DNA of 64,000 nt from a virus. Within the stretch, counting starts at the first letter, position 1; every line of letters begins with the position of its first letter. Positions 427 to 59,295 of the stretch are shown piece by piece. The stretch is taken from the IMG/VR virus record IMGVR_UViG_3300047496_000092, positions 1-64,000 of that record; one strand, given 5' to 3'. Below the pieces are notes generated by a model, which worked only from the letters and a program-made list of their open reading frames with translations, was not told the origin of the DNA and ran no database searches. The position numbers were made by a program, and so were the translations under genes.

Positions 427-894
427 TTAGGACGAGGTAGGCATCCACATTCCACCACGCATCGTGAAGATCAGGAAGAGCGAAAAGACGAGGAGCACGA
501 TCAAAGCGAAAGCGAAGGTTAGACTGACGATCTCTTCCCAGTCGAAGCTAGATTCGCGTTGTCCCGGCCGCGCGTAGTACGCGAGCAGGTCTTTCTCGGG
601 GATGATCAGGTAGGTGTCGTTGTTGACCTTTACCATTGCGCCCGCGTACTTAGAGTACACGACTTCATCGCCGGGACCGACTTTACAGCGCTTGTCGGCA
701 AAGACGACAACGCCTTCCTGCGGTAGCTCTTTCTCGCTGTGCGCGAGCAAGATGCCGCTGCGAGTCCGCAGATCGTGCTTCTCGTCCATCTTGACGATCA
801 CGCGATAGTTCATGGGCCGGATGCGTTGAAAGCGCGCTTCGAGGTCAGCCTCTTCCTTCGCGCCGCCACGCATTTCGTCGTAGAGAATGTTCAC
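427..894 (-). CDS. GroES/Cpn10-like co-chaperonin with a C-terminal transmembrane helix
   Basis: The core IRPMNYRVIVKMDEK...SGILLAHSEKELPQEGVVVFAD...VGPGDEVVYSKYAGAMVKVNNDTYLIIPEKDLLAYY fits the Cpn10 pattern. The tail IVSLTFAFALIVLLVFSLFLIF is strongly hydrophobic. The GTG start overlaps the upstream stop (GTGA). Confidence 0.7.
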   Translation of the reverse strand: MNILYDEMRGGAKEEADLEARFQRIRPMNYRVIVKMDEKHDLRTRSGILLAHSEKELPQEGVVVFADKRCKVGPGDEVVYSKYAGAMVKVNNDTYLIIPEKDLLAYYARPGQRESSFDWEEIVSLTFAFALIVLLVFSLFLIFTMRGGMWMPTSS

Positions 895-11035: not shown

Positions 11036-11916
11036 AGAAGGGCAACCCGCTGAAGGCGTTCGTAGACTCGCTCAAAGCCGAAGACAAGGCCGAGCGAACG
11101 CCGTCAGCCACACTTTTGAAGATCATCGAAGACTACTCCGCATCCGACAGGTTTGATCAGTTCGTTCTGACGCACCGAGCGTCGCTGCCGGACTACATCT
11201 CTGATCACGCTACGTCGCCTCGGCCATTTCGTGCCAGTGCAGCGGGGAAGTGTCAGCAGAGCCAGGTCTACAACGCCGTCAAGCACCCCGAGACGGACAA
11301 GATCAGACGCCCGCCCCGACAGTTCCGCGCGCTGTACAACGGCACGTTCTCGCACTTGCGTTGGCACCTGATGTTCGACGCACTGCATGCAGACGGCATC
11401 GTAACCACGCTCGCAGCCGAAGAACTGCACATCAACGATGATCTCAAACTGTCGGGGTCGATTGACCGGCTGATAGAGTTTCAGTACCTCGAAGAGCCGT
11501 TCCGCACCATCCTCGACTTCAAAACGATCAGAGCGCAGTACTGGAAAGACCTCATCAAGCCGCAATGGGACCACTTCATGTCGGCGCATGCGTACAAGAT
11601 GCTGCACTTCGACGCGAAGAACTACATGCTGCTGTATGAGAACAAGGACACCCAGGAGCTAAAGATTTACGACTTCGCGTTTGACGAAGTGACCGAACGC
11701 AGACTGTCGTCCATGTACTTCAACATGGCGATGTGGCGTGATCAGTACCTGTGCAGGGACCCCATAGAGGTACGCATCAAGTTGCCGCTGATCGTACGTT
11801 GGTGTAGGTACTGTCCTTGGCAGAAGGCGTGTCTCGAAGAGCATCCCGACCTGCACGAACAGCAGCAGCGAATCGGGGAGGAAGAGATGGACGATGGAGA
11901 GGTTGACATCTTCTGA
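11032..11916 (+). CDS. PD-(D/E)XK nuclease with a Cas4-like four-cysteine cluster
   Basis: Track ORF 10966..11916 trimmed to GTG 11032 (GTGA overlap). It has an N-terminal GKCQQSQVY and a C-terminal CRYCPWQKAC (C...CxxCx5C). The nuclease core is GSIDRLIE...ILDFKTI. Confidence 0.65.
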   Translation: MKKGNPLKAFVDSLKAEDKAERTPSATLLKIIEDYSASDRFDQFVLTHRASLPDYISDHATSPRPFRASAAGKCQQSQVYNAVKHPETDKIRRPPRQFRALYNGTFSHLRWHLMFDALHADGIVTTLAAEELHINDDLKLSGSIDRLIEFQYLEEPFRTILDFKTIRAQYWKDLIKPQWDHFMSAHAYKMLHFDAKNYMLLYENKDTQELKIYDFAFDEVTERRLSSMYFNMAMWRDQYLCRDPIEVRIKLPLIVRWCRYCPWQKACLEEHPDLHEQQQRIGEEEMDDGEVDIF

Positions 11917-12433
11917 AGGCATATCGGTCAGAACCAACGAGGGCGCACCAGCACTCGCAACGGTGACATTGGTCATCCCAGGGCTCGTTGTCGCACTCAA
12001 CCGGACCTATCGACCTGGGGTGCGAAATAACGCTCCAACCATCCGCAGAACGTACGAAGGGCAGGAGTACCATGACAGAATCGTCTCGGTCGCAAAGCTC
12101 GCGGCGCTCAACTCCCCCACCTGGCCGAAGGACCCCTGGCAACCAACGCACGTCAAGCTATCGACGTATGCGTTCAACACGCGAACTGATGCGGGTGCGG
12201 CCAACAAGATCGTCGCCGACGCACTCGAAGGCATCTTCTACGTCAACGACGAGATCGTGTCGTGGGGCGAATCGCCGCGACCACAGTTCGATGACAACGG
12301 GCCACGGCTCATCGTCTACCTCGAACTGCTCGCCTTCGAAGACGCAAAGCGCACCGAAATGCGCCGCGCCTACGTTCTAGCGAACCAAGAAAAGCGGCGT
12401 CGTGCTAAACGAACCAAGCGACCGGCAGGATGA
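11894..12433 (+). CDS. rusA: RusA-family Holliday junction resolvase
   Basis: TRTDAGAANKIVADALEGIFYVNDEIV matches the RusA D-x-x-N-x-x-K...D-x-L...Y-x-D/N-D pattern. Confidence 0.65.
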   Translation: MERLTSSEGISVRTNEGAPALATVTLVIPGLVVALNRTYRPGVRNNAPTIRRTYEGQEYHDRIVSVAKLAALNSPTWPKDPWQPTHVKLSTYAFNTRTDAGAANKIVADALEGIFYVNDEIVSWGESPRPQFDDNGPRLIVYLELLAFEDAKRTEMRRAYVLANQEKRRRAKRTKRPAG

Positions 12434-12908
12434 CATCTATGATCAGGTTCGAGTCCTATCGGCGCGCGCTGAAGAGACGGTTAAGCTGGTCGTTGCGAAC
12501 TACGCAAAGCAGCTTGACGATTTCGTTACGGTCGTTGAAGAGACGCTCGACAAGCGTACTGACTTTGACGACAAAACGATGCATCGGTTGGTTCTTCGCC
12601 TACCGATTCTCATGTACCGCATAGTGGACGGTGTAGATAGAGCAGCCATCGAATCAGACATGGCGAAAGCGATCACGAAGCTGGTCTACGCACGACACTA
12701 CCTCGAAGCACACGGCACGATTCAAGCAAAACAGTCACGCGCAGACGTACTGACCGCAGATGAAACGCAGGTAGTCGAGCTAACGAAGCACGTCTACTCC
12801 CGTTTGAAAGGCAAACTCGACAAGGCTGAAGCGCTGTTCGATGCAGTGCGGAAAGTCATTACAGATCGCGGTTCAGAACGCGCTATCTTTGGGAGAGACA
12901 GACGTTGA
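12402..12908 (+). CDS. hypothetical protein
   Basis: A 168-aa ORF with a GTG start, in the operon. No motif recognised. Confidence 0.5.
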   Translation: MLNEPSDRQDDIYDQVRVLSARAEETVKLVVANYAKQLDDFVTVVEETLDKRTDFDDKTMHRLVLRLPILMYRIVDGVDRAAIESDMAKAITKLVYARHYLEAHGTIQAKQSRADVLTADETQVVELTKHVYSRLKGKLDKAEALFDAVRKVITDRGSERAIFGRDRR

Positions 12909-14656: not shown

Positions 14657-15038
14657 CTCAAACTTCGTTTACGAGTACCGACAGTTCTCGTACAAGCACG
14701 ACGGGACAACGTATGTTCTGCTGCTCGACAACGAACCGCTGATCGCATTCCCCGAACGTGCGCTTATGGAGCAGTTCTGCGATCACATGCACGACATCAT
14801 CCAAGAAGCTATCGTCAAAAAGGGTGGACTTGCGTTACACATTACCGGATGTGCGCGGTGCAGACGAACGTACGAAGGAACCGCACTAAATCCATGTCAA
14901 ACTGGAATCCCGCTGTTCATCAACGCTAAGAACGCGACGGTCGATCTGATGAAAACAGCGGCGGCTTCGTTAATCGAATGGCGTGAGGGAGAGGGCAGGG
15001 AGGAGGCTGAAAAACTAGAACGTGAAAACGTACAATGA
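14631..15038 (+). CDS. hypothetical protein
   Basis: A 135-aa ORF (alternative GTG start at 14649). It contains CARCRR. Confidence 0.5.
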   Translation: MTLEAVVYNSNFVYEYRQFSYKHDGTTYVLLLDNEPLIAFPERALMEQFCDHMHDIIQEAIVKKGGLALHITGCARCRRTYEGTALNPCQTGIPLFINAKNATVDLMKTAAASLIEWREGEGREEAEKLERENVQ

Positions 15039-15522: not shown

Positions 15523-15721
15523 CCCGTCAGAGGAGTATCCCGTACTTGGTGATCGCCAGCTTCGGCGCGTGTGGGAGGCAGAGGTTCCTGTCAGTCCAGA
15601 CTGTCTGGATAATGCGGCACTCTTTCTTTCTAAGGAAGAGCGAACTGCTGTACAGCGCATCAAAGATCGCGAACGCAAGAGACGCGCAACTCAACTTGCC
15701 CGGTCTATCGGGGCCGCATGA
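15470..15721 (+). CDS. hypothetical protein
   Basis: An 83-aa ORF with a GTG start. It overlaps the upstream gene by 53 nt, so the start is uncertain. Confidence 0.35.
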   Translation: MAKTSPIDQLADALLAANPSEEYPVLGDRQLRRVWEAEVPVSPDCLDNAALFLSKEERTAVQRIKDRERKRRATQLARSIGAA

Positions 15722-16302
15722 CGGGAAGTACAAACCCTACTGCCCTGGGTATGATGAACCCCAAGCAGCAGCGGGCGTTCGAAATCTACGTCGGCCTAGA
15801 GTCTAAAGAACGCTCCATTGCAAAGCTAGCGCTCGCGCTGGCAGCGATGGATACGCCAATCCCCGAGAGTACGTTGAAGTCGTGGTCTGTTCGCTATGAC
15901 TGGGCAAATCGCCTGATCGCTGCCGATACCGAGATCGCGCGCCGTCTTTCGGATGCAATGGTTGCGATACACGTTGATCGTGTGACGAAGGACCTCACGA
16001 AGCTCGACAAGATCAAAGAGACGATCACTGGCGAAATCGAACGTCAACTTGAAGCCGGTGCAGAGAGTCAACTCAACCTGCTTGAACTGATGGGTGCGTA
16101 CGAGCGCATCATTCGTCTGCAAGGCGGGATGGTGAAAGCACCCCCGTCGAGTCCGACCGACAAACAGCCGGACGGCCCTATGCATCCCAGTGGAATCGTG
16201 TTGACTGACGCGCAGCTTCAAGAGATTCTACAGAAGGACATCCAGGAGCGCCAAGGCTTGCCCGCACCGCGTAACGTGACTCCTGCCGAGGAGGTTGCGT
16301 GA
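15718..16302 (+). CDS. terminase small subunit candidate
   Basis: Assigned by position, immediately upstream of TerL, with ATGA and GTGA overlaps. The N-terminal KQQRAFEIYVGLESKERSIAKLA is HTH-like. Confidence 0.45.
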   Translation: MTGSTNPTALGMMNPKQQRAFEIYVGLESKERSIAKLALALAAMDTPIPESTLKSWSVRYDWANRLIAADTEIARRLSDAMVAIHVDRVTKDLTKLDKIKETITGEIERQLEAGAESQLNLLELMGAYERIIRLQGGMVKAPPSSPTDKQPDGPMHPSGIVLTDAQLQEILQKDIQERQGLPAPRNVTPAEEVA

Positions 16303-17912
16303 ACGCGAACGATGGCCTAGTCGGCGCACTGCTTGCAGATCGAACGCGCTACGGCTACGCCGAGCAGAACATCTATGTTGACGGCAAGAAGTTCTCGTTC
16401 GCAGATCACAAGTACCTTGTCGGCATCTACGGCGACACCCACCCGAACATCGTGATCGAAAAGTCGGCGCAGATGGGTGCGAGCATTTACGCTATCATCA
16501 GCGCGCTGTTCGTCTGCGACAAGATGCAGAAGAACGTAATATACTTCTTCCCGACCGACACCGACGTGACCGACTTCGCAAAGACGCGCGTCGCACCGAT
16601 GGTCAACGACAGTCCGTACCTGCAGACCGTTACGTCTTCGAAGGACGCACTGGGTCTACGGCAAGTGAACAAAGGCTGGCTGTACTTTCGGGGCATGAAG
16701 TCAACCATCGCGATGAAGTCAGTTCCGGCCGACTACCTGATCTTTGACGAGTTGGACGAAGTAACCGACGCACAAGAGGCGCTTGCCGACCAACGGCTCA
16801 ACCACTCTGCGCTCAAGTGGCGGCTGAAGCTATCGACGCCGACGTTCGAAGGCTATGGCATCGACCGTGTATTCCAGAAGAGCGACAAGCGGTACTGGAA
16901 CCTCATCTGTCCGCACTGCGACGCCTTCAACATCGTTGAGGACACGTTCCCCGACTGCATCAAGCGCGAGAGCGAGACGGTCGCGTACCTGATCTGCTAC
17001 AAGTGTCAGAGCAGACTGAACACGCAGTACGGTCAGTGGGTGCCGAAGGCTCCGAAGGTCGAGCGCATTCGCGGCTATCATGTCTGCGGGCTCTACTCCG
17101 AGTTCACGTCGCTTGCCGACTTGATGGACGAGTACGACAGTGGGCGTAGGCGCGACGAGTTCATGCGTTCGAAGCTCGGCTTCCCGTACACGCCAGCCGA
17201 TCAACGCATAACGCCGGGGATGGTTCGAGCCTGCGTCGGCGGCGAAGAGATGCACATCGACACGAACACCTACATGGGTGTCGATCAGAAGGGCGATGAG
17301 CTACATATCGTCATCCGCAAGGGCATCAAGTTCACGCGCCAACACGAAATCATCCACATCAGCAAAGTCCGCGAGTTCGGGGAGCTAGATCGGTTCATGC
17401 GGCAGTACAACGTCAACTGCTGCGTCATCGACGGCACTCCGAACCAGCACAGCGCCCGCGACTTCTCGAAGCGTTTCCCAGGCCGCGTCTTCCTGTGCTA
17501 CTACAGCGACTCCCAAAAGGGTGCCTACGCCTGGTCCGAGCCGCAGTCTTCAGACGCGATGGACAAGGGCCTGCACTGGGAGGTCAAGGTGAACCGTACC
17601 GAAGCCATAGACGACATGTACGACGAGATCAGCCGTCGAACTATCACCTTGCCGAAAGAGACACCCGAAGTCAGCACGTTCATCGACCAGATGTGTTCGC
17701 TCGCCAAGGTGTATGAGGAGGACGACGACGGTGGCCTCGTCAAAGCGTTCTGGAAGCGTCTCGGACCAGATCACTACGCTCATGCGAACACATACAGCAT
17801 GATAGCGTTCTCACGTTACGGACAGTTTAGCTCCCGCAGTTCGATGGTTGTGCAGCCGCACGCTGGGATGAAGATCATTCGCAACCGGATGTACGGAGGC
17901 TCGCAGTTTTGA
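16299..17912 (+). CDS. terL: terminase large subunit, lambda GpA-like
   Basis: KSAQMGAS resembles the GpA Walker A (KSARVGYS). Walker B is DYLIFDELDEV. The size (537 aa) and position fit. Confidence 0.8.
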   Translation: MNANDGLVGALLADRTRYGYAEQNIYVDGKKFSFADHKYLVGIYGDTHPNIVIEKSAQMGASIYAIISALFVCDKMQKNVIYFFPTDTDVTDFAKTRVAPMVNDSPYLQTVTSSKDALGLRQVNKGWLYFRGMKSTIAMKSVPADYLIFDELDEVTDAQEALADQRLNHSALKWRLKLSTPTFEGYGIDRVFQKSDKRYWNLICPHCDAFNIVEDTFPDCIKRESETVAYLICYKCQSRLNTQYGQWVPKAPKVERIRGYHVCGLYSEFTSLADLMDEYDSGRRRDEFMRSKLGFPYTPADQRITPGMVRACVGGEEMHIDTNTYMGVDQKGDELHIVIRKGIKFTRQHEIIHISKVREFGELDRFMRQYNVNCCVIDGTPNQHSARDFSKRFPGRVFLCYYSDSQKGAYAWSEPQSSDAMDKGLHWEVKVNRTEAIDDMYDEISRRTITLPKETPEVSTFIDQMCSLAKVYEEDDDGGLVKAFWKRLGPDHYAHANTYSMIAFSRYGQFSSRSSMVVQPHAGMKIIRNRMYGGSQF

Positions 17913-27027: not shown

Positions 27028-27170
27028 AGCAGATCGCTGCGTCAGCTACAGACCTCACGACCGGCATGGTAGCGACGATCTACGATGACGGCACGACAGA
27101 GGTGAAGCATTTAGAGCCCGACAAAGACGATAAGCCAGCGAAAAAGATGCTGCCAATTCGCCCACAGTAG
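27024..27170 (+). CDS. 48-aa ORF paralogous to the N-terminal leader of the preceding polyvalent gene
   Basis: Hand translation gives MKQIAASATDLTTGMVATIYDDGTTEVKHLEPDKDDKPAKKMLPIRPQ. The ATGA overlaps the stop at 27027. It is below the track's size cut-off. Compare MKQLIASGSNLETGMLVRVYDDGSVEHE at 25066. Confidence 0.45.
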   Translation: MKQIAASATDLTTGMVATIYDDGTTEVKHLEPDKDDKPAKKMLPIRPQ

Positions 27171-27216
27171 TCTCACAGGGTGTAGATTTGACGATCAGCG
27201 GGGTTGAGCATAGAAT
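27165..27216 (+). promoter_or_regulatory. stop-linked conserved promoter element, copy 1
   Basis: CAGTAG-TCTCACAGGGTGTAGAT-TTGACG (27188-27193), 17 nt, TAGAAT (27211-27216). Confidence 0.5.
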
Positions 27217-27223
27217 GGGACGC

Positions 27224-27814
27224 ATGAGCCTTGTCGAGCAGCATGCAAAGCTAATGGAGGGCCTCGCGTATCAGCCAGGCACCATTGGCCCAGTGCAGAT
27301 GGACTCACTTGCGTTCATGGTCGCTCCTGTTGCCGATATTACTACCCCTCCTCGAATCGCTCAAGTGGGACTCGGCTACGGCCGATCAGCGTACGCATTT
27401 CTATCTGGTCATCCGTTCTCTGAAGTTGTCGTGTTTGATGACGGTTACGACACTTACATGAACGGTGGTAGAACGACACCTGTGTTCGATAGACTGCAGA
27501 CTGAATTTGGTCAACGCATTAGTGTCGTGTGGGGTAAAACTAGAAACACACTACCTGAATTTGAGTGCTTAAGTAACTTCAACTACATCCACATTGACGC
27601 TGGTCACGACTACGATAACGCACTACACGACATGCTGGCATTTCGTCACTGTCAAAACGCTATTGTCATAGCTGATGATGTTGTCGAGCATTGGCCTGGT
27701 GTCGTGCAAGCATGGTCAGATTGTGTGTACAATGGTGTCATCAAAGAACTCTATCGCGCTAGAGAGATGCGCGGTAACGAAGTGTGTGCATGGGCTGTAG
27801 GTGAGTATGTCTGA
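27224..27814 (+). CDS. class I SAM-dependent methyltransferase (O-methyltransferase-like)
   Basis: Track ORF 27188..27814; ATG 27224 is preferred because 27188-27216 looks like its promoter. IAQVGLGYGRSAYAF is motif-I-like. IHIDAGHDYDNALHDMLAF is also characteristic. Confidence 0.65.
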   Translation: MSLVEQHAKLMEGLAYQPGTIGPVQMDSLAFMVAPVADITTPPRIAQVGLGYGRSAYAFLSGHPFSEVVVFDDGYDTYMNGGRTTPVFDRLQTEFGQRISVVWGKTRNTLPEFECLSNFNYIHIDAGHDYDNALHDMLAFRHCQNAIVIADDVVEHWPGVVQAWSDCVYNGVIKELYRAREMRGNEVCAWAVGEYV

Positions 27815-28301
27815 AAGCATCGACACCGAACACATCAAGTTTCATCGTTTGACGATTGTGATCAACCGCATCAAGTCGTTGAGTGCAGCCATGCCACAGT
27901 ACATGGAAGATGTTATGATGCGCTGCATGACAGACGACATCATACCGTTTTGGCGTCAACACATCGGCTTGCAAGATCACTCGCTCGAAGAGCTTGCGAA
28001 ACTTGGTCATCCATACTCGCGTCGATTTGCTGTTGACTCGTTCATACACCCCGACTCTGAAGTACACGAACAGAGTGGTTCGGTTATGGAGTCAACACAG
28101 ATCGTTGCAGACTCTGTACCTGGTGGTAGACGTGTTCGACTGATCTGCACCTCACCACACTGGATTTTTCTTCGTTATGGTACACGCACTATGCGTATGC
28201 GTGACCCTGCTGGTGTAACCATGAGAGATGCGCTACCAAAGATCAAAGCGCGCATTCACCGTGAAATCAGAGGTGCCATTGTGGAGTACATGAAGTCGTG
28301 A
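27801..28301 (+). CDS. hypothetical protein, weakly HK97 gp10-like
   Basis: WIFLRYGTRTMRMRDPAG resembles the YAxxxEyGTxxMxARPF region of gp10-family proteins. The match is weak. Confidence 0.35.
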   Translation: MSMSESIDTEHIKFHRLTIVINRIKSLSAAMPQYMEDVMMRCMTDDIIPFWRQHIGLQDHSLEELAKLGHPYSRRFAVDSFIHPDSEVHEQSGSVMESTQIVADSVPGGRRVRLICTSPHWIFLRYGTRTMRMRDPAGVTMRDALPKIKARIHREIRGAIVEYMKS

Positions 28302-28675
28302 GTGACATAGACATCGTTTCATGGTCAAAGCGTTTCTGGCGTCACATTCGTGGTGAGTCTGAACCAAACAGACCATCTAGTTCGGGAACAACGACCAATC
28401 CGAATGACCCTGGACTGCGTAGACGAAAAGCGAGTGGTCAGCAAGAAAAGTACCTGATCTCGGATGACCTTGACAAGTCAAAGTTCGTTCGACCTGTCCG
28501 CACAACGTACGTTCACAAACAATGCGGTGTGCAGACAACGATGAGCATCAAGCTAGCAGAGACGTACGCGCGTGACCCTAAGTTCTACGGTGCGACGTTC
28601 TGCTGTGGATGTCAAACACACTTGCCGGTCAGCGAATTCTTTTGGCACGGAACAAAGGAAACTGTGGGGTCGTAG
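28298..28675 (+). CDS. hypothetical Cys-rich protein
   Basis: A 125-aa ORF with a GTGA overlap. HKQCG...FCCGCQTH suggests a zinc ribbon. Confidence 0.45.
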   Translation: MSDIDIVSWSKRFWRHIRGESEPNRPSSSGTTTNPNDPGLRRRKASGQQEKYLISDDLDKSKFVRPVRTTYVHKQCGVQTTMSIKLAETYARDPKFYGATFCCGCQTHLPVSEFFWHGTKETVGS

Positions 28676-28894
28676 TTGAGTCTTCGTTCAGCCCAGGAAT
28701 CACAGAAGCTACTCGACGTAGCAAACATGGCAACTGACGTGCTGCAACACATTGTACGCGGTGTAGAGACGTATGCGCTATGGCATCATCTCAATCTCGA
28801 AGATGTAGTCATTCATCGCGCGTTCTGGTCATGTGACGACAAGCTCGTCATTGAGTTTGCACACGCTTTACACGAAGAACCGACAGATGAGTGA
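28676..28894 (+). CDS. hypothetical protein
   Basis: A 72-aa ORF with a non-ATG start, packed between its neighbours. Confidence 0.4.
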   Translation: MSLRSAQESQKLLDVANMATDVLQHIVRGVETYALWHHLNLEDVVIHRAFWSCDDKLVIEFAHALHEEPTDE

Positions 28895-29522
28895 CACTTG
28901 CGTCTTCATGCTCGCTAGTGGTGACAACATCAAGCCGATCTTAGAGTATTCTGTGCCAAACAAGCAAGAGTACTGTGAGATTCACGACTACGATTTTAAG
29001 ATGCTACCATTTGAAGATGATTGGCAGCGTTTCAAAGTCATGTTGTCGTTGCTGTCAGAATACCATACTGTCATGTATATGGACACTGACACACTGATCA
29101 CAGACTTGACCGTACCATTGCGTTACAGATACGGATGGAAAGGTTTTGTGATCGCTGCTGATCTGTTCGGCTTCAACAGTGGTGTTATGATCGCGCGACG
29201 TGACCCAATGACGTATGAACTGCTGCATGCGATCAACGAACTTGGACCATACCTTGCACACAACCATCCGTGGAAAGAACAAGAAGTTTTACGTCGTCTA
29301 CTGACTGCACCCCCATACGCTGATCATCCGTTCTGGCATTGCGCATTGCAGACAGAACTGAACGCCTATCCAAACGAATACTACGATGGACGTGCAAACT
29401 TTAGCGGAGGGTGGAAACCAGGAATGTTCGTGTTGCACTTACCTGGGATGTCGAATGAAACACGATTGCAAATCATGTCAGGTGTGCAACAACACATCGT
29501 GCGTCCGAAAGCAGAATGCTAA
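28887..29522 (+). CDS. glycosyltransferase (DxD type, GT8/GT34-like fold)
   Basis: Track ORF 28833..29522 trimmed to ATG 28887. CVFMLASGDN...YCEIHDYDF...VMYMDTDTLITD carries the DxD motif. GFNSGVMIARRDP follows. Confidence 0.55.
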   Translation: MSDTCVFMLASGDNIKPILEYSVPNKQEYCEIHDYDFKMLPFEDDWQRFKVMLSLLSEYHTVMYMDTDTLITDLTVPLRYRYGWKGFVIAADLFGFNSGVMIARRDPMTYELLHAINELGPYLAHNHPWKEQEVLRRLLTAPPYADHPFWHCALQTELNAYPNEYYDGRANFSGGWKPGMFVLHLPGMSNETRLQIMSGVQQHIVRPKAEC

Positions 29523-29971
29523 CGTACAAAATGTCGTTCATGTACGACTTCGAACACGGCATCTACATCATAGAGATACGCTCGAAACACTACGGTAAGT
29601 ATCTCACATTGTCGCGCGAATTGCGTGTTGACCGGCCAGAAATGTTCGTTCAGTACATCGGAGAAGCGATCAAGGAGATCAGATGCAAACAGGAGATCAA
29701 AACAAAGACGCGCCAACTGAACCAGTTCGAGATGGTGAATCTCATCGTACACAACTCACGGAGTACGAAGAGCCCAAGCGTGCGTTCAGATCAGGTCGAA
29801 CTCGCGGAGAGATGCCAGTGCGGCCATCTGATGACGATTCACCGAACGCAACTTGACACGCCAACAAAACACGCTGGAAATCCGAAGTGGATGAAGCGCG
29901 GCAGCAAAAATAACATTCTCGGGGAATGCGGTGCAGACAACTGTAGTTGCATCCTCCCAGTCTCAGAATAG
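29516..29971 (+). CDS. hypothetical protein with C-terminal Cys/His clusters
   Basis: A 151-aa ORF containing CQCGHLMTIH...GECGADNCSC. Confidence 0.45.
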   Translation: MLTYKMSFMYDFEHGIYIIEIRSKHYGKYLTLSRELRVDRPEMFVQYIGEAIKEIRCKQEIKTKTRQLNQFEMVNLIVHNSRSTKSPSVRSDQVELAERCQCGHLMTIHRTQLDTPTKHAGNPKWMKRGSKNNILGECGADNCSCILPVSE

Positions 29972-30114
29972 AAGAAGCGGACTGTTCACGACGCAGCCCG
30001 CTCTTCTCATTGGTTCCGTCTCACGTCGGCCGCGTATCTCATCTCGCGCCGACACCATAGTACCATACCCGCGCAAGCGTACGATCAACCTCGTTCTCAC
30101 ACAGTAGCGCGCAG

Positions 30115-30142
30115 TTGACGAATGATTTGCGTGTATTATAAG
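30115..30142 (+). promoter_or_regulatory. sigma70-like promoter
   Basis: CAGTAG (30102-30107) lies upstream. TTGACG (30115-30120), 16 nt, TATAAG (30137-30142). Confidence 0.4.
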
Positions 30143-30207
30143 ATGGAACGCACACAGCGCAGACAACAGATCATGTGCCAGCAATAGCCTCAAAAGGCGG
30201 GGGAAAA

Positions 30208-30492
30208 ATGGCAAAGTCGAAGATCGTCACAGCTACCGTCAGCGAAGATGGGCAGACGATCATACTGACGAGGTTTGGTGTGGAGCGGCGTGAGTTATCT
30301 GCCGCGTCGATGTACGATGACGCAGAGTTGTTGCAGCGCACCATCATGGAGATGCTGCGTTCACCAGAACCTGAAAAGTCGGGGTTCAGTGTGGAAGTTG
30401 AGATCGTTCAATCACACACTTGCACGATCAACGGTGTCGAGCATACGGTCGTAGACGAAGCGAGCGTCAAAACCCCAAAAGTCGGGGGCTGA
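30208..30492 (+). CDS. hypothetical protein
   Basis: Track ORF 30175..30492 trimmed to ATG 30208, preceded by GGCGGGGGAAAA. Confidence 0.55.
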   Translation: MAKSKIVTATVSEDGQTIILTRFGVERRELSAASMYDDAELLQRTIMEMLRSPEPEKSGFSVEVEIVQSHTCTINGVEHTVVDEASVKTPKVGG

Positions 30493-30518
30493 ACTGAGGT
30501 CGTTTCTCCCAGTGTTCT

Positions 30519-31035
30519 TTGACACACCGTTACACCTAGCGCCTAGTCATCCACTCGCCGTGCGGTGAGCGTAGGCCCAGCGATGACTGTTGTCCAAGCC
30601 TTACACCCAAAGAAGCCCCGGCCCGGCCCCTGTCAAGGTGCCGGATGGTGCTGCGATCATCCACTGACGCCCACAAATCTTGGTTTGTGGGCTTCAGTCA
30701 TTCCACCCCACCATCCTGTGATTGCACGGCTTTGCCGGACAATCACCACGCAAGCGCAGGCATCGACGGGTTCTCTGTACGGCTGATGCCACCATCCAGC
30801 CGGACGATGCTGATCGCCCATCCAGCACTTCCGGCCATCGAAGGGGTGGGGACCGGCCGCCATCCGGGTAACGCAGGAACTCCTGGAAAGGGGACCCCAT
30901 CCACCCGCGCGGTCCCCTCTCCCACCGTCTGAAGCGCCATGAGAGCCCTGCGCGCCTGGGCTATACCCCAGTACGAGTAGGCTCTTGCGAACGTCTATCA
31001 ACAGCCTTTTTCGCGTTCGAGATTTTTTGTAAACC
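30519..31035 (+). other. non-coding, GC-rich, hairpin-dense region (candidate structured RNA or protein-binding array)
   Basis: All overlapping track ORFs are Pro/Trp/Gly/Arg-rich with no protein-like character. There are several perfect 6-9 bp stems and seven same-strand CATCC motifs. T-runs lie at about 31006-31030. Confidence 0.5.
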
Positions 31036-31062
31036 AGGACTCGACTGTATCAACTTGGAACG

Positions 31063-31680
31063 GTGGTCGGCATGGGTGAGCCGGTTGAGTTCGTCAACGT
31101 AGTAAGGGTGCGACTGGAGGCCGTCAAGCGCGAAGCTGATCTGATGAGGGCCGGGTTGAAGCGCTGTGCCGAGGAGATGGACGGCCTGGTGCGGTTGCTG
31201 GAGATGTACGGTGTAGCCGTTGGGGACGAGCCCCCGGCCCAGGAGGTTTTGCCGGACCCGCCGGTTCGAGGCGAGCGATCAACGCAGCCGGTCGGCACGA
31301 CGGTGTACCGCGAGCATCCCAGTCCGAAGTCGGTGCTGACGAAGTTGCCCCGAGGGCGACAACCCATCGACGGCATCGCAGATCGCAACGTGCGCATCAT
31401 GCAGTTGACGGATGATGGGCGAACGGGTGCGGACATTGCCGATCTGCTCGGCGTCTCGCTTCAGACGGTGTACCAAGTGCGCAACAAGATGCGCAAGCTG
31501 CACGACGATGAGCCGTGGAAGATGCCACTGGAACCCGAACTCGCGGTCGCTGTGGAGAAAGCGAACGAAGATGCCCGGCGATTCGCGGATGCAATGTGTG
31601 GAGTGCGCGACCCGAACTACCCCATTCGGCATTGTAGCATTCAAGGCGCGCACGACGGTTTGCACTCATGGGAGAGGTAG
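31063..31680 (+). CDS. HTH DNA-binding protein
   Basis: GADIADLLGVSLQTVYQVRNKMRKL is a clear HTH. The N-terminal half is coiled. An alternative ATG lies at 31072. Confidence 0.55.
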   Translation: MVGMGEPVEFVNVVRVRLEAVKREADLMRAGLKRCAEEMDGLVRLLEMYGVAVGDEPPAQEVLPDPPVRGERSTQPVGTTVYREHPSPKSVLTKLPRGRQPIDGIADRNVRIMQLTDDGRTGADIADLLGVSLQTVYQVRNKMRKLHDDEPWKMPLEPELAVAVEKANEDARRFADAMCGVRDPNYPIRHCSIQGAHDGLHSWER

Positions 31681-32243
31681 AAGACTTCCTCAACGCAACG
31701 GCCGACTTCGAACCTGACAATCTGTATGTGGAGTTGCATGAGCCGACGCAGATAAAGCGGTCGCTGGTGCGCTTTCATTATGAGAAGACCGGCAACGTGT
31801 GTTGGGTGTGCGGCTTGCGTATGCTCTTTCCGCCCAAGGAACGCGACGCTGCGTTCAAGCGCGACGCCAATTCGCCATTAACTGTCTCGCTCGATCATTA
31901 CCCGGTCAAACGTGCGCACGGTGGCAAGCTAACGTCGGACAACACGCGCTTGGCGCACCGCTTTTGCAATTCGGTGCGCGAAGAGTGGTCGCACCCCAAT
32001 CTCACCAAGCACATGTCCGATCTGTTGTTGCGCTGGGAGCAGACGGGTTCGACGGCGATGGTCGGTCAGCCGGTGCAGTGGACGAAGAAGACGCGCAAGG
32101 AAGCAGCGAACGCCAAGCGCCGGTCGCGAGCCGAGAAACGCGCGGCGAAGTTGAAGGCGGTCCTGCGCAAAGGGTGGTCGGCTGACAACGGCCGGTACAA
32201 CCCGGTGTGGGACGATGCGTGTAGGCGAACCAAGCCGGAATGA
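31668..32243 (+). CDS. HNH endonuclease
   Basis: CWVCGLRM...SLDHYPVKRAHGGKLTSDNTRLAHRFCNSVR shows the pattern CxxC...DH...N...H..CN. Confidence 0.8.
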   Translation: MGEVEDFLNATADFEPDNLYVELHEPTQIKRSLVRFHYEKTGNVCWVCGLRMLFPPKERDAAFKRDANSPLTVSLDHYPVKRAHGGKLTSDNTRLAHRFCNSVREEWSHPNLTKHMSDLLLRWEQTGSTAMVGQPVQWTKKTRKEAANAKRRSRAEKRAAKLKAVLRKGWSADNGRYNPVWDDACRRTKPE

Positions 32244-32575
32244 AGCGCCCCGATCTCACCCGTATAAGGAAGAGCGAGTGGAGCGACCGCACCTCGGCCA
32301 CATCCCAGGGGCGGCTTGCGAAACTGCTCGCGGGTCGGCGGCGGCTCGAACGACTCCGCATCCTGCGCCTCCGCGAGCAATTAGAGGAGATATGGCGGCA
32401 GGACACGCCTCTTCCCCTGCATAGAGTTGGGCGAGATCAGCCCTGTCATTGCGTTCGGACATACATACGGAGCCTCCACGATCTTAGCCGCAAAATACAC
32501 GCTGCACAGACTGTAGATTCCCGGCGGTTCGACCCCGACGCTTTGCTGGCCGCGTTCGGCATCGGCATCCTGTAG
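32240..32575 (+). CDS. hypothetical Arg-rich protein
   Basis: A 111-aa ORF with an ATGA overlap on the HNH stop and high GC3 in the first half. Its TAG stop opens the conserved promoter element. Confidence 0.4.
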   Translation: MKRPDLTRIRKSEWSDRTSATSQGRLAKLLAGRRRLERLRILRLREQLEEIWRQDTPLPLHRVGRDQPCHCVRTYIRSLHDLSRKIHAAQTVDSRRFDPDALLAAFGIGIL

Positions 32576-32623
32576 ACTGCGCACCGTGTACGCTTGACAT
32601 CGCCTTTGATCTCGCGCTACGCT
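32570..32623 (+). promoter_or_regulatory. stop-linked conserved promoter element, copy 2
   Basis: CTGTAG-ACTGCGCACCGTGTACGC-TTGACA (32594-32599), 18 nt, TACGCT (32618-32623). Confidence 0.5.
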
Positions 32624-33031
32624 CTGTTGGCAACGGAAACACCGTTATGAAACTGGACGACTGTGTGGGCGGGCGCAAGCCAACTTGACAGCTTTCGGTA
32701 CGCTGACGGAATAACCGATGCGGGCAAGTGCGAGTTCTGTTGAGGTGCCTGCACTTGCTCAACGGTGGGGGATACACAGCGCCCATGCTCTGCATCCCCT
32801 GCCTGCCTAATTTTTGATCAAGCATTCCCATACAACGGCCGGTCCTTCAGACACTTCGACTGATGCCGGGGTTGGGTGAAGAGCTATATGCGTCTTCAAC
32901 TCAGATGGGAACAGAGCGCACCACTGAAGAGTCGAAGCTCGGTGGTGCGTTCGCATATAGTAGCGCGGGTCCGCTTCTGATCTGCCTCGAAGAAGGTGAG
33001 CCAACCAAACTCACCCTTCGGAGGTTCAGTC

Positions 33032-33853
33032 GTGAAGCATTTCTTCGCAGTCACCTTCTTCGCAGTGCTGGGTACATGTGCTGCGATTTTTTCGTCTGCG
33101 CCGGTCCTCGCCGCAGCCGACATCCCCATCCTTACGGTTCAGGATAAGTTCACCGCTCCCGGCGACTACGCGATCACAAAGATGTCGGGTCAGCAGACGT
33201 GCGGCTACACATTGACCGGCACCGGCACCGGCTTGTTTACGACGTTGCAGCTTTCCCCCGACAATCAAATTTCGTGGCAAGTCGCGACGAACGTCACGAC
33301 AAACGGTTACGGCAACGGCATTTGGGGTCCGAACAACATTGTCCAATATGGGCAAACGTACTTCAAATTGCACGTCACCGCGATCAGCGGCGGGGTCGAG
33401 AACTACATCATCGTCTGCAGTTCCGCAAATGTCGGGGCACTGCCGCCGTATGGAATGTACTACGATACGCAGGCAGCGATGCTCAATTCGAACTTCGGCA
33501 TGTCCATGTTCAATGCGACAAGCAGCGAGGTCGATCGCGTACACGGCGACCCGATCTTCGAGATGCTGGTCAACAGCGACTGCTCGCTGAACAAAGTGAT
33601 CACCGGCCCAGTGACCAACACCGTCGTCAAGGCCAGTGCCGGTCGCATCTGCAGCGTCATGGTCACGACCGTTACGTCCGGCGCGATCACGTTCTACGAC
33701 AACGCCACGACGAACAGCGGCAACGTCCTCGACGTAATTCCAAGCGCAACGGCTGTGACCGGCGCGTCACTGCAGGCGCGCATGCCAGCGGTCAACGGCA
33801 TTACGGTCAACGGCCCAGCAACGTCCGGTTCGATCACCATCAGCTATCAGTAG
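33032..33853 (+). CDS. secreted beta-rich protein of unknown function
   Basis: Track ORF 32996..33853 trimmed to GTG 33032, with GGAGG 7 nt upstream. The signal peptide is VKHFFAVTFFAVLGTCAAIFSSAPVLAA/ADIP. The body is rich in Thr, Gly, Asn and Val. Confidence 0.6.
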   Translation: MKHFFAVTFFAVLGTCAAIFSSAPVLAAADIPILTVQDKFTAPGDYAITKMSGQQTCGYTLTGTGTGLFTTLQLSPDNQISWQVATNVTTNGYGNGIWGPNNIVQYGQTYFKLHVTAISGGVENYIIVCSSANVGALPPYGMYYDTQAAMLNSNFGMSMFNATSSEVDRVHGDPIFEMLVNSDCSLNKVITGPVTNTVVKASAGRICSVMVTTVTSGAITFYDNATTNSGNVLDVIPSATAVTGASLQARMPAVNGITVNGPATSGSITISYQ

Positions 33854-33902
33854 TCTGCACACCGTGTACGCTTGACGCGCTGGTGTACGATGAATGTAGC
33901 TT
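33848..33902 (+). promoter_or_regulatory. stop-linked conserved promoter element, copy 3 (-10 ambiguous)
   Basis: CAGTAG-TCTGCACACCGTGTACGC-TTGACG (33872-33877). It matches copy 2 at 25 of 27 positions. The best -10 is TAGCTT at 33897-33902, with 19-nt spacing. Confidence 0.4.
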
Positions 33903-34721: not shown

Positions 34722-34758
34722 AAAAACGGGTCGGTATCACTACCGGCCCGTTTCTCTT
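34722..34758. terminator. bidirectional intrinsic terminator between convergent genes
   Basis: AACGGGTCGGTA (34725-34736), loop TCAC, TACCGGCCCGTT (34741-34752): 12 bp with 1 mismatch. It is flanked by AAAAA on the 5' side and TTTCTCTT on the 3' side. Confidence 0.6.
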
Positions 34759-36731: not shown

Positions 36732-36906
36732 TGATGACGACGAGCGGCCGGTCATCATCTGGAAGGCCACGCTGTACATTCGAGTCGCAGCGCGGGGAAA
36801 GATGGCGGCCTCGAACAAAATCAACCTGATGTTCAACTCTAGTGCAGTCGGCTTGCGCGACTACCAGATCACGGACATTCACCCGGCCGACGACGATCAG
36901 CAGTAG
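36724..36906 (+). CDS. hypothetical protein
   Basis: Track ORF 36655..36906 trimmed to ATG 36724. Its TAG stop opens promoter element copy 4. Confidence 0.45.
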   Translation: MPDDDDERPVIIWKATLYIRVAARGKMAASNKINLMFNSSAVGLRDYQITDIHPADDDQQ

Positions 36907-36954
36907 CCTGTACAGACTACACGTTTGACGACCGGCCGACCTCTGTTGTAAGAT
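36901..36954 (+). promoter_or_regulatory. stop-linked conserved promoter element, copy 4
   Basis: CAGTAG-CCTGTACAGACTACACGT-TTGACG (36925-36930), 18 nt, TAAGAT (36949-36954). The ATG follows only 10 nt later. Confidence 0.5.
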
Positions 36955-57639: not shown

Positions 57640-58440
57640 GTGTTTGGATTCGGAGCGGGACGCGCCCGCATCATCCCTAGCGGCGGAACACCGTACGAAC
57701 TTGGCGTGGTGCAGAGTGCATCGGCCGAATTCAAGGTGGACCTCAAGGAACTACGCGGCCCCTACCGCTACCCGCAAGCCGTCGCCGATGGCAAGGGCAC
57801 GGCAAGCGGTAAGGTATCGTTCGCCAACCTGTGGCCGCCGACGCTCTCGGAAATTCTCGCAGCCGCTGCACCGACGCAGAATCCAACGGCATCAACGACT
57901 GTCGGGCAGGCTGTCATCAACGAAGTGCAGCCGATCAGCGGTACGCACTGTACCTTGACCAACGCGACTACCTATGTCGTTGGCAGCGAGATCGTCGTTG
58001 TCACGATCTCCGGTGTTCCGTATTACTACACGCGCGGCGGCTCGCCAGCAGTTGCATCGGCGACGGCTCCGCTTGCCGGTGTGTATTCGATCAACACCGG
58101 CACCGGGGTGCTTACGTTTGCATCCGGTGACAACGGCAACAACGCAACGATCACCTATCTGTACAGTCCGACCGGCAACAACGGCAATGCCAGCATCGCA
58201 CTTTCACAGCTTGGCATGAACACGGCTCCGACTTTTCAGTTGACGCTGATCGGAACCGGCAAGAACTACTACTCGAACGCTACCCAGCAGTTCATCATCG
58301 TCTTCAATGCCGTCTTAGCTCCGTCACTCAAGTTCGACTTCAAGCTAGACGACTTCACGATGATGGACTTGGACTATCAAGCCTTCATCGACGGCAGCGG
58401 CAACCTCGGTTCGCTGTACTTCGTAGCACCGGACGCATAA
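57640..58440 (+). CDS. major tail (tube) protein candidate, paralog 1
   Basis: GTG start. 266 aa. The N- and C-terminal thirds are nearly identical to the next gene. It lies upstream of the chaperone and tape measure genes. Confidence 0.55.
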   Translation: MFGFGAGRARIIPSGGTPYELGVVQSASAEFKVDLKELRGPYRYPQAVADGKGTASGKVSFANLWPPTLSEILAAAAPTQNPTASTTVGQAVINEVQPISGTHCTLTNATTYVVGSEIVVVTISGVPYYYTRGGSPAVASATAPLAGVYSINTGTGVLTFASGDNGNNATITYLYSPTGNNGNASIALSQLGMNTAPTFQLTLIGTGKNYYSNATQQFIIVFNAVLAPSLKFDFKLDDFTMMDLDYQAFIDGSGNLGSLYFVAPDA

Positions 58441-58449
58441 GGAGCAGAC

Positions 58450-59235
58450 ATGTTCGGATTCGGAGCGGGTCGAGCCCGCATCATTCCTTTCGGTGGTACG
58501 CCGTACGAACTCGGTGTCGTGCAGAGTGCGTCCGCTGAATTCAAGGTCGATCTCAAAGAGCTTCGTTCGACCTACCGTTACCCTGTTGCCGTCGCGGACG
58601 GGAAGGGCACGGCATCGGGCAAGGTCAGCTTTGCTAATCTCTGGCCGCCGACCCTAGCCGAGATTCTGTCGTCAACCGCACCGACGCAGACCGGCCAGCA
58701 AGCCGCGATCAACGAAGCGCAAACGATTCCCTCGTATCCTGGGCCGTATACCGTTACGTTGACCAATGCGGCTACGATGGTGGCTGGCAGCGAGATCGTC
58801 GTCGTGACGATTGCCGGTGTGCCGTACTACTACTCGCGCAGCGTTATCACGGCACACGCATCGGCAACCAATCCGCTGAACGGCAGCTATACGATCTCAG
58901 CCGGTGTGCTGACGTTTAACGTCCTGGATGCGGGCGAAGCGATCTCGGTGACGTATCTCTACACCCCGGCAGGGACCGCGAACGCTACTATCGCTCTGTC
59001 GCAGCTTGGCATGAACTCGTCGCCGACGTTCCAACTGACGCTGATCGGCACCGGCAAGAACTACTACAGCAACGCGACGCAGCAGTTCATCATCGTCTTC
59101 AACGCTGTGCTGGCACCGAGTTTGAAGTTCGACTTCAAGCTAGACGACTTCACGATGCTGGACTTGGATTACCAAGCCTTCATCGACGGCTCGGGAAATC
59201 TCGGGTCGCTGTACTTCGTCTCGCCAGACGCATAA
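58450..59235 (+). CDS. major tail (tube) protein candidate, paralog 2
   Basis: 261 aa. MFGFGAGRARIIP.GGTPYELGVVQSASAEFKVDLKELR and the last ~80 aa match paralog 1. Confidence 0.55.
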   Translation: MFGFGAGRARIIPFGGTPYELGVVQSASAEFKVDLKELRSTYRYPVAVADGKGTASGKVSFANLWPPTLAEILSSTAPTQTGQQAAINEAQTIPSYPGPYTVTLTNAATMVAGSEIVVVTIAGVPYYYSRSVITAHASATNPLNGSYTISAGVLTFNVLDAGEAISVTYLYTPAGTANATIALSQLGMNSSPTFQLTLIGTGKNYYSNATQQFIIVFNAVLAPSLKFDFKLDDFTMLDLDYQAFIDGSGNLGSLYFVSPDA

Positions 59236-59257
59236 AGTTTCCTTTCGTCGGGAAAAG

Positions 59258-59295
59258 AACGAACCCCAGGCTGCACACCTGGGGTTCTTTCTACT
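59258..59295. terminator. bidirectional intrinsic terminator
   Basis: GAACCCCAGG (59261-59270), loop CTGCACA, CCTGGGGTTC (59278-59287): a perfect 10-bp stem. TTTCT follows on the plus strand and TTCTTTTCCC on the minus strand. Confidence 0.7.

Follow-up and report, generated by a model that had tools for sequence, protein, structure and literature searches.

The 64,000-nucleotide stretch of viral DNA analyzed here (the window; IMG/VR record IMGVR_UViG_3300047496_000092, positions 1 to 64,000) has its biggest intergenic gap within 0-60 kb at 30493-31071 (~0.58 kb). The core of this gap, 30588-30925 (~340 nt), may well be a conserved structured element of a small uncultivated phage clade, most likely working as plus-strand RNA. 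The gap is non-coding, excess structure is present in two phages, its blocks exceed the neighboring genes in conservation, and base pairs are kept through double changes; transcription of the element, the strand used and its role are what we infer. An earlier note, made from the letters of this DNA, had described a hairpin-dense, GC-rich non-coding region with seven same-strand CATCC motifs, and had suggested a novel structured RNA, a long structured 3' untranslated region (UTR) or a protein-binding array. That observation was confirmed as a whole, and its interpretation was partly supported: the finding exceeds a chance cluster of hairpins, but on other grounds than those proposed earlier.

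Conservation of the Core in a Related Phage

The core was compared with a 13.8-kb JGI contig (L123), which was retrieved as the one relative of the 1021-amino acid (aa) virion-module protein encoded 5 kb upstream of the gap (34% identity). L123 is syntenic with window 22-30 kb; the proteins conserved there include GT34 (54% identity) and those of 166 and 151 aa. After the 151-aa homologue, L123 shows a terminator-like hairpin, a block at 12104-12150 with 76% identity to window 30034-30083, TATAAG next to it and a 33-aa open reading frame (ORF); beyond these come a GC-rich uncalled stretch and, last, a minus-strand gene that has a terminator of its own. The L123 element (core homologue 12412-12730) is at the same syntenic position as that of the window, and the two cores are identical in 56% of alignment columns, compared with 48.1 +/- 1.3 for shuffles.

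Block A (30588-30651), an A/C-rich stretch (TACACnCnAAnAAG) followed by hairpin P1 (30623-30644), is 78% identical to L123 12412-12476 (E = 9e-9), whereas the neighboring genes are 65-66% identical at the DNA level. Of the 7 pairs in P1, one changes from C-G to G-C between the phages; the tip of this hairpin keeps GTCAAG in both, with GTCA as the loop in the window and CGTCAA as that in L123. A 4-bp mini-hairpin, P1b (30646-30659), forms standard pairs (G.U included) on the plus strand only; two of its pairs changed on both sides, and two G.U/U.G variants correspond to C.A on the minus strand.

Directly after block A lies P2 (30663-30698), a 15-bp hairpin with a 6-nt loop that contains the 9-bp stem listed earlier. 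Its sequence differs in L123, where the stem is 14-17 bp and the loop is likewise 6 nt, and it starts 18 nt past the end of P1 in the window and ~16-19 nt past it in L123. Eight of the 13 aligned pairs changed on both sides and every one is still paired. Stems of at least 12 bp are found three times in the 64-kb window and once in 13.5 kb of L123, with the P2 pair at matching positions. The remaining big hairpins of the window (34724-34753 and 59256-59292), with flanking A/T-runs and positions between convergent genes, are probably bidirectional terminators.

Further downstream, P3 (30718-30746, plus strand) is an imperfect hairpin capped by TTT; the hairpin at L123 12529-12587 is longer and has ATT as its loop, and we infer the homology of the two solely from their order. 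The variable middle (30759-30843), which holds the GGCATC/GATGCC and GCCGGA/TCCGGC hairpins, a local duplication and the fourth and fifth CATCC copies, has no confident alignment to L123 12526-12645. Block F with its long-range helix PF extends over 30844-30914, and 30844-30913 is ~70% identical to L123 12646-12716. PF pairs 30855-30869 (GGCCGCC..CGGGT) with 30903-30914 (ACCCG.GCGGTC), with one double change and two G.U variants between the phages. RNAalifold gave -18.9 kcal/mol for block F on the plus strand (20 pairs, 6 changed on both sides) and -11.7 kcal/mol on the minus strand (16 pairs, 2 changed). The sequence CGGGTAAC occurs once in each phage sequence.

Pairs in the part from block A to P2 were counted by RNAalifold on the ungapped window/L123 alignment. 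All 27 predicted pairs are formed in both phages, and 11 of them changed on both sides. When the 3' partners were shifted by 1-3 columns as a slide control, 26-43% of positions were paired with 0-2 double changes, and the observed pairing values were reached in none of 500 shuffles.

Folding Excess

Folding was compared with dinucleotide shuffles. For the entire gap, z was -3.2 when the plus strand was folded and between -3.1 and -3.5 for the minus strand, the strongest value among 14 intergenic gaps tested, while six coding controls ranged from -0.4 to +1.4. For the 338-nt core, z was -4.5 (plus) and -4.3 (minus), and none of 150 shuffles folded equally well; the L123 core gave -4.0 (plus) and -5.1 (minus). 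The 3' flanks were no better than shuffled sequence in either phage (z ~0 in the window, ~+2.3 in L123). The hairpin density claimed earlier was thus borne out, with folding well above chance on both strands. A third relative, L176, has a GC-rich uncalled stretch that is unstructured, so high GC content alone does not make the non-coding DNA of this phage group structured.

Other long stretches of the window without convincing genes (32244-32995, 60723-61661 and 62034-63398) are less structured than the studied gap (z -0.6 to -1.9). The first lies directly 3' of an HNH endonuclease gene and may contain a weak 111-aa ORF.

Non-Coding Status of the Gap

Codon log-odds were at or below 0 in all six frames over 30475-31000, compared with +0.1 to +0.3 in the flanking genes, and an independent gene call on an identical Logan assembly contig likewise left the stretch uncalled. 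ORFs internal to the gap had no Pfam match at E<1 and no match to phage records by tblastn. In a tblastx comparison of the window with L123, block A was the sole match in the element; it was picked up in three frames and carries a 1-nt indel, which together exclude a shared reading frame. The earlier claim that the gap holds no credible ORF therefore stands. The possibility of a decayed protein gene, which the earlier note had named as its own counter-case, was looked at and is disfavored: there is no residual protein similarity, no coding signal and no frame-consistent conservation.

A broader version of this view, in which the gap has no specific function and is either a decayed gene or a string of intermodule hairpins serving as terminators or insulators, fits the location of the element between modules and the fact that other window gaps also fold somewhat better than shuffles (z -1 to -2). 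We consider it highly improbable, since block A is better kept than the flanking genes, an ordered set of helices is maintained via double changes, neither a reading frame nor any protein similarity can be traced, and P2 lacks a U-run, unlike the two bidirectional terminators of the window.

Strand and Nature of the Element

The comparative evidence, namely conserved blocks, compensatory changes in one relative and the lack of an Rfam match, favors the earlier suggestion of a novel structured RNA, and is also compatible with a long structured 3' UTR of the gene at 30208-30492. The plus strand is slightly favored, on modest evidence. All neighboring window genes and the upstream promoter are on this strand, the G.U pairs of P1b and PF become C.A on the minus strand, and the consensus energy of block F is lower on the plus strand.

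In the reading as plus-strand RNA, a short unit would comprise a sigma-70-like promoter at 30115, a small variable ORF and the element. Since the element is within this promoter and small-ORF unit, it would be made as the long structured 3' part of the transcript or as an RNA processed from it. It would start with a conserved A/C-rich single strand, followed by P1 with its GTCAAG tip, P1b, the stable P2 of free sequence, variable hairpins and PF, and this last long-range helix would close a multi-stem domain. Conserved single-stranded and loop sequences would be recognition sites for a protein or another RNA, whereas the hairpins would supply a fixed scaffold and nuclease protection. More tentatively, the core could belong to an undescribed family of trans-acting phage RNA (scaffold, sponge or ribozyme-like) expressed from its own small unit, in which case it would interact during infection with a host or phage factor through the A/C-rich strand and the GTCAAG tip of P1.

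Several points weigh against a plus-strand RNA. Energies do not separate the strands in block A (-40.8 vs. -40.5 kcal/mol), the minus strand gives the slightly better fold of the L123 core (z = -5.1 vs. -4.0), and perfect Watson-Crick compensation is equally expected of single-stranded-DNA hairpins. Compensatory changes were seen in one relative, and two sequences are too few for the R-scape type of covariation test proposed in the earlier note; the P2 hairpins could in principle have arisen independently. The promoter-like site at 30519 is poor, and the T-runs lack convincing preceding terminator hairpins in either phage. In addition, the more distant L176 spans the equivalent neighborhood with different genes, and the element was not detected there.

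A structured RNA read from the minus strand, antisense to the surrounding genes, agrees with the folding values of the L123 core. The L123 core lies ~270 nt from the end of a minus-strand gene, and read-through could yield such an RNA; the window has TTGATA-16-TACAAA at 31054-31027 (minus) and a CCCC..GGGG hairpin followed by TTTT at 30487-30465. However, the L123 gene has its own terminator-like hairpin ahead of the element, all window neighbor genes are on the plus strand, and on the minus strand P1b is lost, PF gains a C.A mismatch in each sequence and the consensus energy of block F is weaker, so that we regard this explanation as quite unlikely.

The element could also act as a DNA cis site, for instance a secondary origin or single-strand initiation site, or a packaging, recombination or module-boundary site. 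Hairpins would then extrude in single-stranded or supercoiled DNA, and the conserved blocks would be protein-binding sites. Both strands do fold equally well, most compensatory changes go from one Watson-Crick pair to another, as in DNA hairpins, and the phage has its own initiator-like protein, helicase, primase and polymerase. The element is also at a synteny breakpoint, with the genes to its left common to the window and L123 and those to its right unrelated. Nevertheless, the conserved motifs occur nowhere else in the window, which leaves neither an iteron-type repeat nor a copy close to the initiator gene, the terminase genes are 14 kb away, P1b and PF depend on G.T pairs on one strand, and folding of RNA or of a single strand accounts better than a binding site in duplex DNA for a hairpin kept in position and changed in sequence. 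A DNA site is unlikely on this balance.

Proposed Transcription Unit and Neighboring Genes

A sigma-70-like promoter at 30102-30144 (plus) was called by the consensus scan, with a CAGTAG box, TTGACG, 18 nt and TAAGAT, or equally TTGACG-16-TATAAG. Judged from the sequence, it probably starts a unit holding the 94-aa ORF (30208-30492, plus) and the element, and no terminator was called from the 30115 promoter site through to the element. The 94-aa ORF has a positive coding score and no Pfam or PHROG match; the corresponding position in L123 is occupied by an unrelated 33-aa ORF (12272-12373). Since a bidirectional terminator-like hairpin precedes the unit in L123 (12052-12070), promoter, small ORF and element form a separate unit.

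Four promoter-like sites of the window (27165-27216, 30102-30144, 33848-33900 and 36901-36954, all plus) consist of CAGTAG(Y), 6-17 nt and TTGACG, with TA(A/G)(G/A)AT 17-18 nt later in three of the four and an unclear -10 hexamer at 33872. CAGTAG overlaps the stop codon of the preceding ORF at all four. They seem to form a phage-specific class of promoters by which 27-37 kb is split into ~3-kb units.

Downstream of the gap, a helix-turn-helix (HTH) protein (31063/31072-31680, plus; HTH_23, 3e-7) is followed by a 191-aa HNH endonuclease (31668-32243, plus; PHROG HNH endonuclease, 2e-12), and the two genes overlap by 13 nt. Both are absent at the L123 position, where a minus-strand gene is found downstream instead. 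The pair is probably a window-specific inserted cassette with a free-standing endonuclease, outside the conserved element. The link between the element and these genes drawn in the earlier note was not upheld, as L123 has the element without either gene and the HTH protein matched only itself.

CATCC Repeats

CATCC was found seven times on the plus strand, exactly where described earlier (30548, 30658, 30712, 30793, 30819, 30861 and 30898), with one inverted copy at 30643-30647. The number expected by chance per 570 nt is 0.85 from the window k-mer frequency and 1.1 from dinucleotide shuffles, and at least seven copies were reached in none of 5000 shuffles. However, at least one 5-mer occurred seven times or more in 7% of shuffles and at least one 6-mer five times or more in 3.7%, and the copies at 30793 and 30819 sit within a local duplication of ~19 nt, GCTGAT..CCATCCAGC. 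Given the correction for any word and the duplication, the enrichment is real and its weight borderline. Spacing is irregular (26-110 nt), and no tandem-repeat or longer repeat unit was found around the copies.

As a functional feature, the repeat did not survive comparison. The L123 element has just two CATCC in 567 nt, neither at an aligned position, and its plus strand is G-rich, whereas that of the window is C-rich. L123 has instead its own same-strand repeat, GCGGCGA(C/T)C, five times at 12530-12855, where five of the nine both-strand copies in the 13.5-kb locus fall, which suggests that such short repeats apparently arise easily in variable parts. The CATCC copies are probably an incidental peculiarity of one genome; they would derive from C-rich linkers, hairpin arms and the small duplication, and would not be the working part of the element. 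A second gap, 32244-32995, has four CATCC in another context (GCATCC[T/C]), and part of it may be a real ORF.

A binding array for the adjacent HTH protein, operator-, centromere- or pac-like and maybe controlling or targeting the HTH-HNH cassette, had been one of the earlier options. The motif is locally enriched on one strand only (7 vs. ~1 expected), of the seven CCATCCA copies across the window, three cluster in a 110-nt span inside the gap, four CATCC copies lie 0-1 nt 5' of a hairpin, and the HTH gene is directly downstream; since array and gene are both window-specific, they could have come or evolved together. Nevertheless, family-wise significance is just ~0.04-0.07, the motif is merely 5-7 nt with irregular spacing, two copies stem from the local duplication, and the small terminase subunit is another gene (15718-16302). 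Motif conservation, which the earlier note had proposed to look for in relatives, was not found in L123, which keeps the element without the array or the HTH gene and carries the distinct GCGGCGA repeat. With neither the HTH nor the HNH gene in L123 and only two CATCC there, the array is unsupported, and we consider it very unlikely.

Two further roles for the motif were considered. CsrB carries CAGGAUG repeats, and GGAUG matches part of the CsrA SELEX (systematic evolution of ligands by exponential enrichment) consensus. The minus strand, with seven GGAUG, might then be a sponge RNA of the CsrA/RsmA type. Alternatively, the plus strand might be a DnaA-box-like cluster (TCATCCACT vs. TTATCCACA), since two copies fit the E. 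coli DnaA box at 7/9 positions. Both are scarcely credible. L123 has not kept the motif (GGATG once on the plus and twice on the minus strand), GGAUG is marginally more unpaired than the rest of the minus strand (probability 0.38-0.52 vs. 0.33-0.40), and no Csr or Rsm family matched even at E = 10. The remaining five copies fit the DnaA box at just 4-6/9 positions, and an oriC-like origin is further disfavored by 59% GC and the absence of an AT-rich element. A Rho rut site was set aside because the plus strand is C-rich in the window and G-rich in L123; attP and cos/pac sites were also considered and set aside.

Promoter-Like Site, Proposed Switch and 3' Flank

All sequence features listed in the earlier note are present, two of them displaced by one position: the GCCGGA/TCCGGC hairpin is at 30799-30835 and GGGGACCG begins at 30848. 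The GGCATC/GATGCC hairpin stands as listed (30759-30790, plus). At the 5' end of the region, the hexamers of the proposed promoter exist as described (TTGACA 30519-30524, a 19-nt spacer, TAGTCA 30544-30549, plus), but the consensus scan did not call this site, which has a spacer of 19 nt and a -10 hexamer without the final T. It is followed by the CTCGCC-GTGC-GGTGAG hairpin (30554-30569, plus), which has one G.U pair. The whole segment 30519-30569 is window-specific; the sole resemblance in L123, TTGACACACCGTTAC, matches 12 of 15 bases and is not significant by itself. In L123, just ~38 nt separate the small ORF from block A.

A switch-like arrangement had also been proposed, with two alternative 5' partners (GGGGACCG from 30848 and AGGGGACC at 30889) for one 3' arm (CGGTCCCCT, 30910-30918), all on the plus strand. 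The GGGGACC/GGTCCCC pairings on which it was built are window-specific, with no L123 counterpart; the helix actually kept at this site is that of 30855-30869 with 30903-30914.

Besides a hairpin at 30941-30986, the 3' flank (30941-31028, plus) has a weak hairpin whose loop is 18 nt, as well as T-runs at 31007-31011 and 31023-31028. It folds at z = -0.05 and is not kept in L123. It may be a weak terminator, although the consensus terminator scan of the plus strand over 29800-31800 called none. The region as an intrinsic terminator was rejected: P2 has no U-run, the hairpin that precedes the T-run has the 18-nt loop, and there is no scan call.

Phage Context

The window makes up the greater part of a 73-kb phage contig; across 15 kb, the Logan assembly contig is identical to it. 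The replication module (1.8-14 kb) encodes helicases, an O-like initiator, a primase, a family A DNA polymerase and a recombinase. It is followed by a sigma-like protein at 15022, TerS at 15718, TerL at 16299 and a portal protein at 17909, and by three large proteins downstream of the portal gene that reach 27 kb. GC content is ~57% in the window and 59% in the studied region. It falls to 48-51% over 25000-30000, a stretch with methyltransferase and glycosyltransferase genes inside that ends where the studied gap begins.

Cultured phages gave no close relative; the top TerL match was 29% identical (Thermus phage Lalka), without synteny. At the DNA level, the region had no match among INPHARED phages and PLSDB plasmids.

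Elsewhere in the window, 427-894 (minus) encodes a GroES/Cpn10-like co-chaperonin (Pfam Cpn10, 1e-17). The tandem paralogous genes 57640-58440 and 58450-59235 are 73-83% identical across repeat segments of 140-255 nt and belong to PHROG 8234, a virion structural or tail-like family. A module of ~22 aa (LREGGAGSGDHGHAGRPGKVGG) recurs seven times within the 467-, 1021- and 653-aa proteins downstream of the portal gene (21189-21253, 22808-22872, 23594-23658, 24221-24285, 25162-25226, 25846-25892 and 26374-26420). It is the best-kept portion of the relatives of these proteins in L123 and in three further contigs (L174-L176), and could be a repeated cleavage or assembly signal.

Search for Further Relatives

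The homologue search covered 5.8 billion proteins, among which the HTH protein and a 285-aa downstream protein had only self-matches. The contig index had no entry for the 94-aa ORF protein or the HNH protein, and IMG/VR scans with four single proteins returned nothing. Scanning IMG/VR with the GT34 alignment found just an unrelated AT-rich phage, whereas the 1021-aa alignment found three further contigs of the same phage group (L174-L176), two of which (L174 and L175) end short of the element position, and a contig with a short N-terminal match alone (L177). A contig scan with the P1 pattern gave 49 GC-rich chance hairpins, none of them a homologue according to covariance model R1.

A metagenome DNA scan with the palindrome GCCCACAAA-N6-TTTGTGGGC gave >120 hairpins, which were unrelated. 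This palindrome is common in soil and peat metagenomes (loci L003-L122), often in recurring contexts such as TCTTGAC..ATGAGCG or a CAGATG loop, a recurrence suggestive of repeat families or operators that have no link to this phage. Within L123, the homologue of the window gene 29516-29971 (151 aa) is split across two overlapping frames (11348-11837); a frameshift, a sequencing error or a programmed shift could account for it.

Comparison with Known RNA Families and Systems

The earlier note had proposed a search of Rfam, and this was carried out with Rfam 15 (4227 models) at the gathering score and also at E<=10. At the gathering score, no model matched in the window, L123 or L174-L177, with GOLLD, ROOL, HEARO, group I and II introns, CsrB/Rsm, 6S, tmRNA and RNase P included among the models. 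At E<=10, scattered chance matches were obtained, none common to the window and L123, and ARAGORN found no tRNA or tmRNA. The element belongs to no described RNA family, in keeping with the novelty suggested earlier.

Metagenomic phage genomes hold many long uncalled stretches, which are usually ignored. This core bears the marks of a selected folded element, as it beats adjacent genes in conservation, its helices survive double substitutions and it has no Rfam match. If it is RNA, the few large non-coding RNAs listed for phages would gain a new family, and a defined 340-nt target would be available. The case also calls for caution, since a seven-fold same-strand motif beside an HTH gene failed comparison with one relative.

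Among DNA sites, arrays bound by HTH proteins (cosB R sites, P1 parS boxes, plasmid iterons) resemble the gap in having several same-strand copies of a short motif beside an HTH gene. The CATCC motif differs from them in being 5-7 nt, irregular, borderline and absent as an array from the homologous element that lacks an HTH gene.

The gap shares with intrinsic terminators its GC-rich hairpins and the T-runs toward its 3' side, but P1, P2 and PF have no U-tract, and the region of the T-runs is neither kept nor structured. As in RNAs associated with HNH proteins (HEARO/omega RNA of IscB, and group I introns with HNH), a structured non-coding stretch stands directly upstream of an HNH gene. In this case, however, the 191-aa HNH protein has no detected RuvC, no HEARO or intron model matched, and the L123 element has no HNH gene.

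GOLLD and ROOL are large structured non-coding RNAs of phages and prophages, of unknown function (Weinberg et al., PMC5737381), with cryo-electron microscopy structures available (PMC12286853). Like them, the core is several hundred nt long, multi-hairpin and phage-borne, and was recognized by conserved blocks and compensatory changes. It differs in that it has no Rfam match, is much smaller than GOLLD, has no adjacent tRNAs and is represented by two instances only, with a fold far less supported.

Finally, structured 3' UTRs and small RNAs derived from them resemble the core, which follows a small ORF in a short promoter-driven unit, has hairpins without U-runs that could block 3' exonucleases and, in L123, is at a convergent gene junction. 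Unlike in such 3' UTRs, the single-stranded blocks are better kept than coding genes and the upstream ORF is unconserved (94 aa vs. an unrelated 33 aa). Since the blocks are conserved while the ORF is not, the comparison points to a role of the RNA itself, and not of "its" gene.

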